A stretch of DNA of 32,607 bases from Acidimicrobiales bacterium (GTDB lineage Bacteria; Actinomycetota; Acidimicrobiia; Acidimicrobiales; JANYDT01): positions 1 through 32,607 of the forward strand of contig JAYVGK010000096.1 of assembly GCA_043772215.1 (NCBI GenBank), given 5' to 3'. This document shows, piece by piece, positions 23,003 to 28,683 of the stretch. The first letter of the stretch is position 1; each line of letters starts with the position of its first letter. A model generated the notes under the pieces. That model made no database searches. It worked only from the letters and a program-made list of their open reading frames with translations, and was not told where the DNA came from. A program made the translations under genes and the position numbers.

Positions 23003-25554
23003 ACGGCGAACACAGCGGCCAAGCCGGCCGCTTCACGGGCCCGTAGTGCCTGATGTACTCGGAGACGCTCCATGTGCTGGGCCAACTGCTTCTCTCCCTG
23101 GGGCACACCAGTCGACGCATAGAACGCCAGGATGTCCTCAGCCACTCCCGGCTCGCTGCGCTGAACCAGGCCCTCCACTAATCGCACCACGGCGTTGGCC
23201 GGTACCTTGGCCACAATTTCAGCCCAGTGATCACGCACGAATATCCACGAGTCCGGCCCATTCACCCGGTCACTACACATACGTACGAAGGCAAACGCCG
23301 TGTCCTGGGTACGCACAGAGCCCGACAGGAACAACTCCAGGGTGCGCTGGCGCAGGTGTGGGTGTTCGAATCCACCGAGCCCATGGAGAAAGCGCTGGAC
23401 CAATTGCGGATTGGTGGTGGTGGACCGTATTTCGTTGTAGCGATCCCAGCGGGCCGAGTCCCCCTGATGTGAGCAGATGGACACAATGGCTGGCGCCACA
23501 TCGGGGTCAACCTCGCCACCATCGAGCACTTCGGGGAGTAACGCATCGGCAGCCGCAGTCACTTGAGGGTCTCGCGCCAAGTTGCCCAGTGCGCTGATGA
23601 TCTGGGCGCGTACCTGCCCAGCCAGAGCCGCCTCATCGGGGATGGCGGTCCATCCGAGGTCGGTCAGCGCAGGCGAACACAAAGCAGTGACCATGGCCTG
23701 CAGGCCGGGGCGGGCATCATCGCCGGCAATCTGGTCCAGTGAGCCCAGCCCGCCCAGTAGGGCGCTCCATACGTTGGGGTCACGCTCGGCTTGGAATCCC
23801 TTGGCCAAGGCCACGAAATCCGACGCTGGCGACACCCCGGACAGCACGGCCGCCCACGTATCGGAGACCAATCCGTATCGTTCCACCGGCGCAAGGGAGT
23901 GCACGGCATTGCGCAATGCTCCCAATGTGGTGGCGTCGTAACGCACCCGGTAAAAACCGTGTCCTCCAGCGTTCACCACTGGTGCAGTTTCACCGGGGGC
24001 CAAGGTCACCACGGCTGGCTCTGTGCCAAGGCTGAGACGGCCCAACCCGGCATTGAGAGCGGCGCGATACAGCACCGGAACCTGCCACGATTTTGGTGGT
24101 GATCCGGGCGCAGCGTCAGGTAGGAATGAGAATCGAGACTGTAACAACGTCATCGACGAGTTCTGTACAGAGGCAGTGATGAGAGGAAATCCTCCCTGGA
24201 ATATCCAGGTGTCCATCATCTGGCGAACTGGCTCGCCGGTGACCTCTTCGATGGAATCCCACAGATCCGTGGTTTCGGCATTCGCATAACTATGGGCGCG
24301 TAGGTAGTGACGAACACCATCACGGAAACGATCTACCCCGAGGTACTGCTCCAGCATGCGCAAAACGGCAGCGCCCTTTTCGTACGTGAGGACGTCGAAC
24401 ATACCGTTGGCGTCGGTGGGCGATACCACGGGGAACTCGATGGGTCGAGTGCTGTGCAGACCATCGACGGCCATGGCCATGGAGCGGTAGACGCTGAAAC
24501 TGGTCCAGCGGTCCCACTCCGGTTTCCAGGCGTCTACGCAGGCGATCTCCATGAAGGTGGCGAACGCTTCGTTCAGCCACAAACCGTTCCACCACTTCAT
24601 GGTCACCAGATCGCCGAACCACATATGGGCAATTTCGTGGGCCACCACGTCGGCGATACGTTCCAATTCCGGCTTGGCCGCCACCGTTGGATCCACCAAC
24701 AGGAGCATTTCGCGGAAGGTGATGGCACCCAGGTTCTCCATGGCGCCGGCGGCGAAATCGGGCAGAGCCAACAGGTCCAGCTTGTCGCCCGGATAGGCAA
24801 TGTCGTAGTACTCGGTGAAGTACCGCAGGGAGAAAGCGCCGATGTCGAGGGCGAACTGCGTGAGGTGGGCCATCCCGGGGCGGTGGATCACCCGCAGCGG
24901 CACGCCATCCACGTCGATGGCCTCGGTGGCTTCCAACTCGCCCACCACGAAGCACACCAGATACGTGGACATCTTCATGGTGTCGCCGAAATGGACAGAA
25001 CGTTTGCCCGAAGGCAATGTGTCTTCGTTGATGACCGGTGAGTTGGAGATGGCCATAAGTGCTTCATCCACCACCAGGGTCACCCCGAACACTGCTTTGA
25101 AGTCGGGCTCATCCCAGCACGGAAAGGCGCGTCGCGCATCGGTGGCTTCCATCTGGGTGGTGGCGATGACCTTGGTGGTGCCGTCGTCGGCCTCGTAGGT
25201 ACTGGCGTAGAACCCCACCAACTTGTCGTTCAGGACACCCTGAAACTCGTAGGTGAGCTTAGCTTCACCCACCACCAGAGTGCGGGCCAGCGTGATGGTG
25301 CAACGCTCTGTGGTGGCATCGAGCTCGATGGCGGTGGTGTCGATGCGCACACCGTTGGGGTCCACCACCCAGGCCCGGTCGATGACGAGATCGGCGGCGT
25401 TGCACACGATCTGGGCAGTGGGTTGGTGGACATCCACGGTGATCACCGCTCGGCCTACGAAGTCGCGCTGACCAAGGTCCGGCGACAGGGTGAGGTCATA
25501 GCGGCTGGGAAGAATGGTCCGGGGCAGCCGGTATGGGTTCAAAGTGTCGCTCAC
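22999..25554 (-). CDS. pepN: aminopeptidase N (M1 family zinc metallopeptidase)
   Basis: GAMENLG exopeptidase motif. HEIAHMWFGDLVTMKWWNGLWLNEAFA (HExxH-18-E). 851 aa with an ERAP1-like C-terminal domain. Confidence 0.95.
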   Translation of the reverse strand: MSDTLNPYRLPRTILPSRYDLTLSPDLGQRDFVGRAVITVDVHQPTAQIVCNAADLVIDRAWVVDPNGVRIDTTAIELDATTERCTITLARTLVVGEAKLTYEFQGVLNDKLVGFYASTYEADDGTTKVIATTQMEATDARRAFPCWDEPDFKAVFGVTLVVDEALMAISNSPVINEDTLPSGKRSVHFGDTMKMSTYLVCFVVGELEATEAIDVDGVPLRVIHRPGMAHLTQFALDIGAFSLRYFTEYYDIAYPGDKLDLLALPDFAAGAMENLGAITFREMLLLVDPTVAAKPELERIADVVAHEIAHMWFGDLVTMKWWNGLWLNEAFATFMEIACVDAWKPEWDRWTSFSVYRSMAMAVDGLHSTRPIEFPVVSPTDANGMFDVLTYEKGAAVLRMLEQYLGVDRFRDGVRHYLRAHSYANAETTDLWDSIEEVTGEPVRQMMDTWIFQGGFPLITASVQNSSMTLLQSRFSFLPDAAPGSPPKSWQVPVLYRAALNAGLGRLSLGTEPAVVTLAPGETAPVVNAGGHGFYRVRYDATTLGALRNAVHSLAPVERYGLVSDTWAAVLSGVSPASDFVALAKGFQAERDPNVWSALLGGLGSLDQIAGDDARPGLQAMVTALCSPALTDLGWTAIPDEAALAGQVRAQIISALGNLARDPQVTAAADALLPEVLDGGEVDPDVAPAIVSICSHQGDSARWDRYNEIRSTTTNPQLVQRFLHGLGGFEHPHLRQRTLELFLSGSVRTQDTAFAFVRMCSDRVNGPDSWIFVRDHWAEIVAKVPANAVVRLVEGLVQRSEPGVAEDILAFYASTGVPQGEKQLAQHMERLRVHQALRAREAAGLAAVFAV

Positions 25555-25613
25555 CTGTTCAGTGTTGCAGCTACCCCCGCTGGACGCGAACCCAACGACT
25601 AACCTGCCCGCAC

Positions 25614-26645
25614 GTGAACCATCCCGTCTCCCGTGAGGCCACCTTCGACGTGGTCACCATCGGTCATGCCATTGTTGATGTACTCGGCTACGTACCCGAT
25701 GATTTCCTCGCCACCCACGGCTTGTCCAGGGGCATCATGGAGTTGGTGGATGCAGCAAGGGCTGTGCCGCTGTATCAGGAGATGTGCCGCGTGGCGCTGG
25801 ACACGGGCGATGACCTGCTGCAAATCAGTGGGGGCTCGGCAGCCAACACTGCGGTGGTGGCGGCCCTGCTGGGGGCTCGTACCGGTTTCGTGGGCAAGGT
25901 ACGAGAGGACGAATTGGGGCACGTGTTCACCGCCAACATCCGTGCAGCGGGCGTACATTTCAGCACCCGTCAGTCCGACCACAGCGCTGATCCCACCGGT
26001 CGGTGTCTCATCAACGTCACTCCCGATGCCGAACGCACCATGAGCACCTATCTGGGTGCCGCGCGTGGCCTGCGTGTACCCGATATGGACGAGTCGTTGT
26101 TGGGTGGCGCCCAGGTCACCTATCTGGAGGGCTATCTGTGGGATGAGATCTATGCCAGGGCGGCACTGGAGCGGGCCATAGCCGTGGTCCATCGTGAGGG
26201 GCGTCGATTCTCGCTGACGCTGTCGGACCCGTTCTGTGTTGATCGCTTTCGGGCGGAGTGGATTGAACTCATCACCCGGTCGGTGGACATCTTGTTCGGA
26301 AACGAGGCGGAGTTGTTGTCGCTGTTCGAAACGGACAACTTGGAGTCTGCCTTGGAGCGGGTCGGCTCGCTGTGCGAAATCGCTTCCATCACCCGGGGCG
26401 CCAAGGGTTCCCTGGTGGTAAGTGCGAATGGTATTGAGGAGGTGGCGGCGCATCCTGTGGACCATGTGATGGACACCACAGGCGCCGGTGATGCCTATGC
26501 CGGGGGCTTTCTCTACGGCTTCACTCATGGCCATTCATTGGTGCACTCGGCCGAGTTGGGGGGGCTGGCGGCGGCCGAAGTCATCAGCCACCTTGGCGCA
26601 CGGCCTACATCGGCGCTGCTGGAGATGTTATCTGAGCTGCGTTGA
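25614..26645 (+). CDS. PfkB family kinase (adenosine kinase-like)
   Basis: GTG at 25614 gives VNHPVSREATFDVVTIGHAIVDVL. GGSAANTA motif. C-terminal DTTGAGDAYAGGFLYG anion-hole/catalytic motif. The track ORF start at 25533 would overlap pepN. Confidence 0.85.
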   Translation: MNHPVSREATFDVVTIGHAIVDVLGYVPDDFLATHGLSRGIMELVDAARAVPLYQEMCRVALDTGDDLLQISGGSAANTAVVAALLGARTGFVGKVREDELGHVFTANIRAAGVHFSTRQSDHSADPTGRCLINVTPDAERTMSTYLGAARGLRVPDMDESLLGGAQVTYLEGYLWDEIYARAALERAIAVVHREGRRFSLTLSDPFCVDRFRAEWIELITRSVDILFGNEAELLSLFETDNLESALERVGSLCEIASITRGAKGSLVVSANGIEEVAAHPVDHVMDTTGAGDAYAGGFLYGFTHGHSLVHSAELGGLAAAEVISHLGARPTSALLEMLSELR

Positions 26646-26709
26646 ACAGCGCTGATGCGTGGGGCCATTGGTCGGCAACCGATTTCCCCACCCATCGAAC
26701 TATGCGTAC

Positions 26710-27168
26710 TTACTGAAGCAAGGCCAGGTCGGCCAATACCTCGGCGGCGTGAGCGCCGGGGTCCGTGACGTCATAGGACTTGGCGATCACCCCATCAGGC
26801 TTGATCAGAAACGAGTACCGCTCCGGGAAGTTGGCATATGGATGATCCGCAGCACGGACCACTTCGTATGCGGTTCCCACTGCCCTGTCCACGTCGGACA
26901 GCAGAGGGTATTCCAGCGCTTGGGCCTCCCTGAAGGCCTTGTTGTCGGCCGGGGTGTCGAATGAAGCGCCGATCACTCGGCAATTGGCATCGGCAAAGCT
27001 CTGGGCACTGTCACGCAGCGCCTGTCCTTGAACCGTTCAGCCAGGGGTGCCGGCCTTCGGATACCACCACAGAAGGACCCACGAGCCAGCCTGGTCGGCG
27101 AGGCTCACGATGGTTCCGTCCTGATCGGGCAGCGCAAAAGCGGGGGCAGGGGTGCCTGCACTCAGCAT
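26710..27168 (-). CDS. bcp: Bcp/PrxQ-type peroxiredoxin with in-frame TGA at the peroxidatic Cys position (candidate selenocysteine, codon 44)
   Basis: Track ORFs 27037..27297 and 26710..26976 are in the same frame, separated by a single TGA (27039-27037). The read-through product MLSAGTPAPAFALPDQDG...WWYPKAGTPG-U-TVQGQALRD...LLSD...YSFLIKPDGVI aligns along its whole length with E. coli Bcp (FYPKAMTPGCTVQACGLRD). AGGAAG Shine-Dalgarno lies 4 nt before the ATG at 27168. Confidence 0.7.
27004..27022 (-). promoter_or_regulatory. candidate bacterial SECIS hairpin
   Basis: On the mRNA: UGA, then 14 nt, then GGCGCUG-CGUGA-CAGUGCC. This is a 7-bp stem with one G.U and a 5-nt loop containing GU. The loop starts 22 nt after the UGA. 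Confidence 0.4.
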
Positions 27169-27217
27169 GGGGCTTCCTCTCGAAAGACTCGACAGCACGT
27201 TGCTGCCAGTGACGTTT

Positions 27218-28015
27218 CTACCCCACCTGATTGCGGCCGCGTTCCATGATGGCGTCTCGAGTGCGTTCCAACTCACCGGGCGTGAACGTGGACGCATACT
27301 GGCGATTTACGCGCCGCTCGTGGCGAAGGCCGTCGTGCACGGTCATGGTGTGGATGGAGCGATAGCTGGCGAGCAGTGTTTGCACCGCCGGTCCATTGTT
27401 GCGGGAGATGTCCGCCGCCAATGCCCGTACGGTCGCCATGAGATCGGTATGGGCCACCACCCGGTTCACCAGTCCGAAGGCCAGCGCTTCTTCGGCGCCC
27501 ATGAAGTTGCCCGTGATACTCATCTCGATGGCCCGGCGGATGCCGATGGCCTGGGGCAGCAGCACCGACAGTCCCCAACCAGGCAGAACCCCCACTCGGG
27601 TATGGGTGTCACCGAACGCCGCCCGGTCAGAGGCCACCAAGAAATCGCACTGCAACGCCAATTCGAAACCGCCGGTGATGGCCACGCCGTTGATCGCCCC
27701 TATGACTGGTTTGGTGGTGATGACCCACGGGGTGGTGGGGACCTCGTCGTTGCCCAGGCCCACACCGACGTCTCGTCCGCCCCCTCCGAGTTCTTTGAGG
27801 TCGAGGCCCGCGCAAAACGCCGGGTCTGCACCGGTGAGGATGATCACATCGGAGTCAGAGTTCTCGGCGGCCGTCATCTGCTGGCGGAGTTGTCGGGACA
27901 GCGCCACGGAGAGCGCATTGCGAGCCCCTGGTCGGTTGAGGGTGACCGTGGCGATGCGATCGGAAACATCGAGCAGAACGAGGTCGGCTTCGGGGCTGGT
28001 CATGTGGTCCTTCAT
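27218..28015 (-). CDS. enoyl-CoA hydratase/isomerase (crotonase) family protein
   Basis: VTLNRPGARNAL, ILTGADPAFCAGLDLKE and AINGVAITGGFELALQCD are oxyanion-hole motifs. ATGA overlap with the upstream VOC gene. An alternative ATG is at 28003. Confidence 0.9.
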   Translation of the reverse strand: MKDHMTSPEADLVLLDVSDRIATVTLNRPGARNALSVALSRQLRQQMTAAENSDSDVIILTGADPAFCAGLDLKELGGGGRDVGVGLGNDEVPTTPWVITTKPVIGAINGVAITGGFELALQCDFLVASDRAAFGDTHTRVGVLPGWGLSVLLPQAIGIRRAIEMSITGNFMGAEEALAFGLVNRVVAHTDLMATVRALAADISRNNGPAVQTLLASYRSIHTMTVHDGLRHERRVNRQYASTFTPGELERTRDAIMERGRNQVG

Positions 28016-28683
28016 TGGTGGGGGGTCATGAGGGCAATGGCCACAGTGGCCCCCGCCTTCGACGAGATGGTGGTGATCTGGCGGCCGGGTTGCACGGCGT
28101 CCACCGGTGCCTTCATAAGGTCACCGAGGAACGCGCCGGTTGCTTCGAGGTTTGCCACGGTGTATGCGATACCGAAGAAACGGGCGGGCTGTTCTGCCGC
28201 TTGCGGATCCACATCGGGCGAACCCACCACCTCCAGCACCACCTTGTCGGCATCGCCTCCGTCCGGATCACCGAGCCAAAAGAAGGCCTGGCTCATCGGC
28301 TTGCCATAGGCCTCGCCCTGACGTCGCCGGCGACAGGGTAAACCGAGGCGTTCAAGCGTGGACACGGTGCGCTCTACGTCGGGTGTCATGAGCACGAGGT
28401 GGTCGATGGAGGTGACGCCGTTGGAATGCCCGAGTGGCGCATCCGTCGGTGGGGTGGTCACTCCGGTGACCACGGTGGTGGGGAGGCCCTCGATGCTGGT
28501 GACGCCCTCCAGACCATCACCCTGCAGGGTCCAGGCCACGATGCCCTTGCCTGCCTCGGTGCTGGTGCCCAGGAAATCGTGTCTGGTGTGCCCCACGGTG
28601 GTGTGATTGTCGTGTACCCCAAACCCGAGGGCCGCCCACGTCTCAGGGATGTCGGCAACGCTGATGGCCACAAGTTCGATCAT
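28012..28683 (-). CDS. VOC/glyoxalase-like domain protein
   Basis: Two-lobed glyoxalase-like layout: MIELVAISVADIPETWAALGF, and IDHLVLMTPDVERTVSTLERLGL in the second half. Start taken at the ATG at 28683; a TTG at 28719 is the longest option. Confidence 0.65.
   Translation of the reverse strand: MIELVAISVADIPETWAALGFGVHDNHTTVGHTRHDFLGTSTEAGKGIVAWTLQGDGLEGVTSIEGLPTTVVTGVTTPPTDAPLGHSNGVTSIDHLVLMTPDVERTVSTLERLGLPCRRRRQGEAYGKPMSQAFFWLGDPDGGDADKVVLEVVGSPDVDPQAAEQPARFFGIAYTVANLEATGAFLGDLMKAPVDAVQPGRQITTISSKAGATVAIALMTPHQ

Follow-up and report, generated by a model that had tools for sequence, protein, structure and literature searches.

A predicted selenocysteine peroxiredoxin of the BCP/PrxQ type in Acidimicrobiales, with an in-frame UGA at the peroxidatic position and a conserved SECIS-like hairpin

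Peroxiredoxins (Prx) carrying selenocysteine (Sec) in a T/SxxU active site are an established family of bacterial selenoproteins, of which the successive surveys counted 12 in 2006 and 91, distributed over 78 organisms, in 2016, with repeated conversions of Cys to Sec (PMC1794560; PMC5029168; PMC13188914). The gene treated here, prx, lies on the minus strand of a 32,607-nt DNA of an Acidimicrobiales bacterium (contig JAYVGK010000096.1, assembly GCA_043772215.1; this whole stretch of analysed DNA is called the window below), and it is predicted to encode a further member of that family, with an in-frame TGA at codon 44 read as Sec. It resembles the bacterial Sec-Prx, whose prototype is PrxU of Eubacterium acidaminophilum, in the PF00578 fold, in the placement of the predicted Sec at the peroxidatic Cys of the PxxxTxxU motif, in the stem-loop that follows the UGA inside the open reading frame (ORF) and in the existence of Cys orthologues. 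Unlike the prototype itself, prx is no PrxU orthologue, its product (searched here and throughout with Cys in place of the codon-44 stop) scoring 39.9 bits with the PrxU model NF040737, below the equivalog cut-off of 270; and the lineage with the WWYPKAxTPGU motif to which prx belongs is found mainly in Acidimicrobiia, and not in Clostridia or Deltaproteobacteria. The second system to which the locus can be compared is the BCP/PrxQ group (BCP, bacterioferritin comigratory protein), represented by E. coli Bcp (PRK09437) and by BCP from Xanthomonas campestris (PDB 5iiz, 3gkk). This group aligns with the product over the whole length, provides its best NCBIfam and PDB matches, and shares with it the YPKxxTPGC-T block, the conserved Arg and a monomer of about 150-160 aa, but the product differs in having a predicted Sec at the peroxidatic position and no resolving Cys, either at position +5 or in helix alpha3. 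Finally, bacterial Sec insertion sequence (SECIS) elements, as modelled in bSECISearch and exemplified by E. coli fdhF and fdnG, are also stem-loops inside the ORF just 3' of the UGA, with a 7-bp upper stem and a loop of 5-6 nt. Unlike the E. coli elements, to which it bears no sequence similarity, the prx hairpin is written, in three registers, in the codons of a conserved GQxLRD(S/R/Q)A helix.

Direct translation of positions 27168..26710 of the minus strand gives a single frame of 152 codons plus a TAA, whose sole internal stop is the TGA at 27039-27037 (minus), i.e., codon 44, followed by 108 sense codons. The translation reads MLSAGTPAPAFALPDQDGTIVSLADQAGSWVLLWWYPKAGTPG, then the TGA of codon 44, and then TVQGQALRDS and so on. 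In a mechanical ORF list this frame appears as two minus-strand ORFs, one of 86 aa (27037..27297) and one of 88 aa (26710..26976). The preliminary description of this DNA had already recognized that both ORFs share one frame interrupted only by that TGA, that 108 sense codons come after it, that the residue at +5 is Gln (Gln49) and that, altogether, this is a 152-residue gene of the BCP/PrxQ type split by ORF calling; the translation bears out the first three points, and frame and homologues agree with the last. As for the start, it is likely the ATG at 27168-27166; GAGAGGAAG precedes it (27181-27173), and the MLxxGT N-termini of full-length homologues agree with it. The features on which the argument depends are the following, all of them on the minus strand:

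26710 to 27168, minus strand: complete gene of a predicted selenoprotein, a BCP/PrxQ-like peroxiredoxin with Sec at codon 44 (from the frame, Pfam, solved relatives and four assemblies).
27173 to 27181, minus strand: Shine-Dalgarno-like GAGAGGAAG, with its AGGA core 6 nt before the ATG (read from the sequence; putative function).
27037 to 27039, minus strand: UGA codon 44, predicted to be read as Sec, at the peroxidatic position of PxxxTxxC/U (from the TGA/Cys column in homologues).
27004 to 27022, minus strand: SECIS-like hairpin, with 5' arm GGCGCUG (27022-27016), loop CGUGA (27015-27011) and 3' arm CAGUGCC (27010-27004) (from fold, covariation and the bSECIS criteria).
26818 to 26820, minus strand: codon of Arg117, the conserved active-site arginine of the ERYSFLI motif, invariant in homologue alignments.

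The assignment to the peroxiredoxins is straightforward. The Pfam family AhpC-TSA (PF00578) matches residues 5-130 (E=4.5e-34, 117.5 bits versus a cut-off of 26), with positions 2-123 of the 124 of the profile covered. Among NCBIfam models the Bcp model PRK09437 comes first, at 106.5 bits and below its equivalog cut-off of 140; the PrxQ model NF053650 gives 78.3 bits against a cut-off of 260, and the Prx-SUH model NF045827 no match at E<=0.001. By these scores the predicted product is BCP-like, yet an equivalog of neither PRK09437 nor NF053650. The same affinity is seen among solved structures, since the 14 PDB matches at E<=1e-10 (best E=2.9e-19) are mostly named bacterioferritin comigratory protein, including the top four, while the others carry just the name peroxiredoxin or alkyl hydroperoxide reductase. 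These matches to solved BCPs are enough to establish the fold. The alignment to Xanthomonas BCP (PDB 5iiz, YPKDSTPGCTTEG) pairs its active site with that of prx and its ERSTFLL with ERYSFLI, which contains Arg117. The active-site motif, YPKAGTPG-U-T, places Pro37, Thr41 and the predicted Sec44 (U) on PxxxTxxC/U, the peroxiredoxin motif as given in PMC13188914. Pro37, Thr41 and Arg117 are invariant in the homologue alignments. Judged from sequence, the clade of prx is BCP/PrxQ-like with a WWYPKAxTPG(U/C)T signature. A resolving Cys at +5 (helix alpha2) or in alpha3 defines only the atypical 2-Cys members of BCP/PrxQ, and 1-Cys members exist as well. E. coli Bcp carries its resolving Cys at +5, and Cys84 of Xanthomonas BCP is the alpha3 one. 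In prx both positions are without Cys, +5 being Gln49 and Arg80 aligning with Cys84, and the only other Cys of the protein is Cys63, which 71% of the TGA forms described below also have.

Is the TGA real, and is it old? Three ENA assemblies and one Logan assembly contain the 459-nt gene without a single difference, TGA included, and all four call it as fragments of 43 and 88 aa. A scan of genomes, limited to one per species, yielded 80 loci, nearly all of them from metagenome-assembled genomes (MAGs) of Acidimicrobiia and with protein identities of 55-92%, and codon 44 is TGA in 77 of them and TGC in the other three. Genomic homologues number at least 479 in all; records with the TGA allele include OY970315.1, OY970375.1 and CAVXQD010000007.1, and OZ257157.1 is an example of a Cys-only genome. 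A scan of metagenomes, seeded with Cys-form queries, yielded 78 further loci, and despite the Cys-type query 66 of them have TGA and 12 have TGC or TGT, so that the column comprises, overall, 143 TGA loci and 15 TGC or TGT loci. The protein databases reflect this in their own way: close homologues are either TPGCT proteins of full length, about 155 aa, or, in 48 clusters among the best 120, ORFs of 88-115 aa starting just past the active-site codon, which are the footprint of gene callers halting at the TGA. By identity clustering, the Cys forms are nested among the Sec forms, with a mean identity of 57% between the two classes versus 60% within the Sec forms, and for six Cys forms the nearest neighbour is a Sec form. 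Both parts of the gene are under purifying selection, with dN/dS values (nonsynonymous to synonymous rates) of 0.11 for the N-terminal and 0.06 for the C-terminal part against the closest relative (L001), and family medians of 0.26 and 0.36, respectively, with dS near saturation for most pairs. Furthermore, the third codon positions of invariant residues are free to vary on both sides of the TGA, upstream of it in WWYPKA.TPG.

Regarding the taxonomic range of these sequences, the closest relatives of the window DNA are Acidimicrobiales MAGs. TGA loci were also found in MAGs labelled outside the Acidimicrobiia, three as Mycobacteriales (L054, L056 and L059) and one as Burkholderiales (L051), the last label being probably a binning error. 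The only match from a cultured genus, Pseudofrankia sp. BMG5.36 (L080), has TGC and is without the hairpin.

Downstream of the UGA, the candidate SECIS element is a 7-bp hairpin that starts 14 nt after that codon, positions 18-24 pairing with 30-36 when the U of UGA is counted as 1. This is the hairpin GGCGCUG/CAGUGCC with loop CGUGA that had been proposed from the letters alone; it was recovered at the same place, with a spacing of 21 nt from the UGA to the loop. The bSECIS model asks for a loop of 3-9 nt, an upper stem of 4-16 bp, a UGA-loop spacing of 16-37 nt, a minimum free energy <= -7.5 kcal/mol and a G in the first two loop positions followed by G or U (PMC13188914). In prx the loop has 5 nt, the stem 7 bp, the G stands at loop position 2 with a U after it, the spacing is 21 nt and the isolated hairpin has a folding energy of -11.2 kcal/mol (z=-2.65 versus shuffles), all within those limits. 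The comparative data go further. Among the distinct, though mutually related, TGA sequences, all seven pairs form in 122 of 135 and six of the seven in another 12, that is, at least six in 134 of 135, whereas the 13 distinct Cys-form sequences reach a maximum of five pairs, usually one to four, and at least six in none of them, the best of three registers (a loop of 5, a loop of 5 with a bulged C and a loop of 6) being taken per sequence in both sets. The main register comprises 83 sequences, with 98.6% of the cells paired, compared with 32-47% when the partners are slid, and the cells with a double change number 59 versus 18.3 +/- 2.9 in shuffles, none of the 500 shuffles reaching 59. The pair 21-33, for instance, is seen as CG, GC, GU, UG, AU and UA. 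The loop-6 register gives a similar outcome in pairing and covariation, and RNAalifold predicts the hairpin helix independently. Taken as a comparative prediction, the conserved and covarying hairpin fits the bacterial SECIS model.

The hairpin leaves its mark on the codons in which it is written. Over codons +5 to +11 the synonymous entropy drops to 0.2-0.7, compared with 1.2-1.9 elsewhere. The loop Arg (+8) is encoded by CGU in 131 of 137 TGA sequences and by CGG in the other 6, never by CGC or CGA, CGC being the usual codon at high G+C, while the 10 Cys forms having Arg there use CGC, CGA and CGG, and CGU in 0 of 10. That restriction to CGU and CGG corresponds exactly to the G[U|G] of the bSECIS model. 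Similarly, Ser at +10 is encoded by AGY codons only and never by TCN. The effect seems to reach beyond synonymous choice: the residue at +11 is Ser alongside Gly at +6 and Ala alongside Ala at +6, in line with the covariation of position 20 (base 2 of codon +6, GCN/GGC) with position 34 (base 1 of codon +11, GCC/UCC), and, some pairs thus joining a synonymous to a nonsynonymous site, RNA pairing appears to influence the choice of amino acids. The approximately 135 natural variants of an in-ORF SECIS, together with the matched Cys controls, make up a data set on how RNA constrains codons and amino acids.

Two side observations concern the registers. They broadly match two protein subclades, of 33 and 104 Sec sequences, respectively. 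Besides, one MAG (isolate 586cdf5a-961c-495f-9bcf-4f54bc253372) has two TGA paralogues on different contigs, L041 (10130) and L079 (10130), one with a loop-6 SECIS (TLQGQGLRDQA) and the other with a loop-5 SECIS (TIEGQALRDRA).

Putting these data together, the locus is very probably one gene, encoding a 152-residue Sec peroxiredoxin of the BCP/PrxQ type, of about 16.5 kDa, that would be decoded by means of SelB and a SECIS element. During translation, the hairpin at 18-36 nt would display its apical loop CGUGA, the Sec-specific elongation factor SelB with Sec-tRNA(Sec) would bind that loop, and UGA44 would thereby be read as Sec, with no termination. The selenolate, held by Pro37, Thr41 and Arg117, would then reduce H2O2 or organic hydroperoxides and become a selenenic acid, to be recycled directly by a thioredoxin-type reductant in a 1-Sec cycle. 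A 1-Sec mechanism is probable because the two resolving-Cys positions of BCP/PrxQ proteins, +5 and helix alpha3, hold Gln49 and Arg80 here. The preliminary description had called the protein a 1-Sec Bcp, and of this the Sec-type peroxiredoxin of 152 residues is supported, while the 1-Sec part is derived from the missing resolving Cys and is less secure in view of Cys63.

There are several points that weigh against the Sec-peroxiredoxin interpretation, or against parts of it. Regarding the RNA, the single-sequence fold is unconvincing, because the 76-nt region around the site is unexceptional at 62% G+C and folds no better than shuffles (z=-0.34), so that the case rests on the comparative data; there, choosing the best-fitting of the three registers for each sequence inflates the percentage of paired positions (the same rule having been applied to the Cys controls), and the control set is small, with 13 distinct sequences. 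Neither has the hairpin an Rfam family, be it for the whole window at the gathering threshold or for 26900-27100 at E<=10. Rfam covers bacterial SECIS elements poorly. The two matches that did appear, chrB-b and a trypanosome snoRNA, were set aside as chance matches. The near-saturated dS, mentioned above, belongs here too, and Cys63 could act as a resolving residue, which leaves the 1-Sec cycle not secure. Regarding the decoding machinery, ARAGORN finds no tRNA-Sec in the window and 165 loci (1.48 Mb, with flanks of +/-10 kb per genome), and tblastn with E. coli SelA, SelB and SelD (approximate queries) finds nothing at E<=1e-2 in the same 1.48 Mb of flanks. Likewise, Pfam shows no sel genes among 20 ORFs of the window, which has no tRNA either. 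Since the coverage was that of the window and the +/-10-kb flanks, the missing sel genes are uninformative about the genomes. According to a 2026 preprint, each of the 84 complete Actinomarina genomes (Actinomarinales, another order of the Acidimicrobiia) has selA, selB, selC and selD, and therefore the Sec trait does exist in this class.

Among the alternatives, the one that survives best, although improbable, is that ribosomes insert a residue other than Sec at the UGA, whether by a reassigned code (Trp or Gly), by near-cognate read-through (Trp or Cys) or by a read-through stimulated by the hairpin without SelB. In its favour, no sel genes were found in the window and flanks searched, and one JGI gene call (P0001, L161:524-952) does print W at the active site. 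Nonetheless, the DNA underlying that call is TGA, so that the W is merely the same codon under another translation table, evidently one reading TGA as Trp and applied to the whole contig; gene calls of this kind hide selenoproteins as apparent W-mutants. TGA is an ordinary terminator here, ending at least 4 of the 14 confident genes of the window (four were counted). Furthermore, a peroxiredoxin with Trp or Gly in place of its peroxidatic residue would lose its chemistry, the column alternates with Cys only, and the loop admits only G[U/G], at a distance from the UGA demanded by the SelB-dependent bSECIS model.

Much less room is left for a recent TGC-to-TGA nonsense mutation, leaving a pseudogene or a truncated product of 43 aa, which was the alternative offered by the preliminary description. 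It would take a single base change, and gene callers do annotate two fragments. Yet 143 related loci keep the TGA at identities falling as low as 55%, purifying selection acts on the half after it, and a compensating hairpin is conserved in the TGA forms only. The preliminary description had also named what would bear on the matter: the orthologue column turned out to be TGA in most relatives and a Cys codon in the rest, compensatory changes in the hairpin were found among the TGA forms, and, instead of relaxed selection downstream, the C-terminal dN/dS against L001 is 0.06. With TGA in 77 of 80 and 66 of 78 loci, selection on the protein and a conserved hairpin, the nonsense mutation is excluded, and the variant in which the TGA forms are recent pseudogenes that arose independently is contradicted by dN/dS and covariation alike.

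A split peroxiredoxin is equally hard to maintain. It would consist of two polypeptides (43 aa and about 88-108 aa), with the hairpin serving re-initiation or coupling, and it would account for the GTG, ATG or GTT that many homologues have soon after the TGA, from which the ORF calls there derive. But the break would fall on the catalytic residue and cost the enzyme its peroxidatic nucleophile; what the stretch after the TGA conserves is the hairpin and the frame, not a ribosome-binding site, and the Cys homologues are single chains. Finally, a one-base error of sequencing or assembly, for which nothing specific speaks apart from the generic concern about MAG-derived sequence, is practically negligible, given four independent assemblies with the same gene and the TGA codon in 143 other loci. 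Altogether, identity across assemblies, conservation of the TGA, constraint and the normal use of TGA stops make a recent nonsense mutation, an assembly error or a reassigned code excluded or very unlikely.

With UGA44 read as Sec, how new is this protein? No paper was found on the WWYPKAxTPG(U/C)T clade or on a Sec-PrxQ in Acidimicrobiales, although older surveys may include members under the name 'Prx', and the Actinomarina preprint is the only report found on the use of Sec in Acidimicrobiia. Because the T/SxxU family is established, prx is a new member or lineage of the known Sec-Prx and not a new kind, and the known mechanisms of Sec insertion and of peroxiredoxins are unchanged by it. 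What it does imply is that many Acidimicrobiia, which are largely uncultured and abundant in soils, fresh water and the sea, would decode Sec for a housekeeping peroxidase. A more far-reaching proposal, on which the arguments seem evenly balanced, is that Sec-PrxQ is the near-universal default across the Acidimicrobiia, with some cases in other Actinomycetota, and could be the main selenoprotein of the class. If this were so, abundant aerobic actinobacteria of soil, freshwater and marine habitats would depend on selenium for their defence against peroxides, by means of a lineage that has gone unrecognized, lying below the NCBIfam cut-offs and present in databases only as truncated ORFs. In terms of annotation, an antioxidant enzyme is currently recorded as fragments of 43 and 88 aa and, in dozens of database clusters, as N-truncated ORFs, and a Sec-aware family model would mend hundreds of gene calls.

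The surroundings of prx are those of ordinary chromosomal DNA (62% G+C), with glmS-like, pepN, ychF, glycosyltransferase and ABC transporter genes in the window. Its immediate neighbours are:

27218 to 28015, minus strand: enoyl-CoA hydratase/isomerase gene, upstream of prx and ending 49 nt before its start (Pfam ECH_1, E=8.3e-48).
25533 to 26645, plus strand: PfkB kinase gene, downstream of prx and convergent with it.

A scan for promoters and terminators gave no such site between the enoyl-CoA hydratase/isomerase gene and prx. Two ORFs antisense to prx and to the hydratase gene, at 26659-26964 (plus strand, 101 aa) and 27152-28309 (plus strand, 385 aa), were rejected as artefacts of high G+C; that opposite prx is present in 64 of 80 loci simply as a by-product of the conserved sense frame. 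The flanks were also scanned for other selenoprotein genes, taken as frames in which 35 or more open codons lie both before and after an internal TGA, together with a hairpin of 7 bp or more whose loop contains GU. The 126 hits other than prx look like out-of-frame, Arg-rich noise of high G+C, and none has a redox motif.

In the conserved neighbourhood of the 80 genome loci only one gene recurs, with no conserved reductant partner: a membrane protein of the VIT1/CCC1 family (about 300 aa, PF01988, E=3e-53), encoded directly downstream of the Sec-prx in 29 of the 80, mostly on the same strand and about +335 nt from the Sec codon (in L009, about 346 nt after 3977). In the window, that place is taken by the convergent PfkB kinase gene instead. 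This adjacency may link the handling of iron or manganese to oxidative stress. Lastly, a CMD/AhpD-like gene (PF02627; L162:4710-5273) shares the contig of the window and lies some 6 kb upstream of prx, beyond ychF, the AhpD-like proteins being another redox family with known Sec members.

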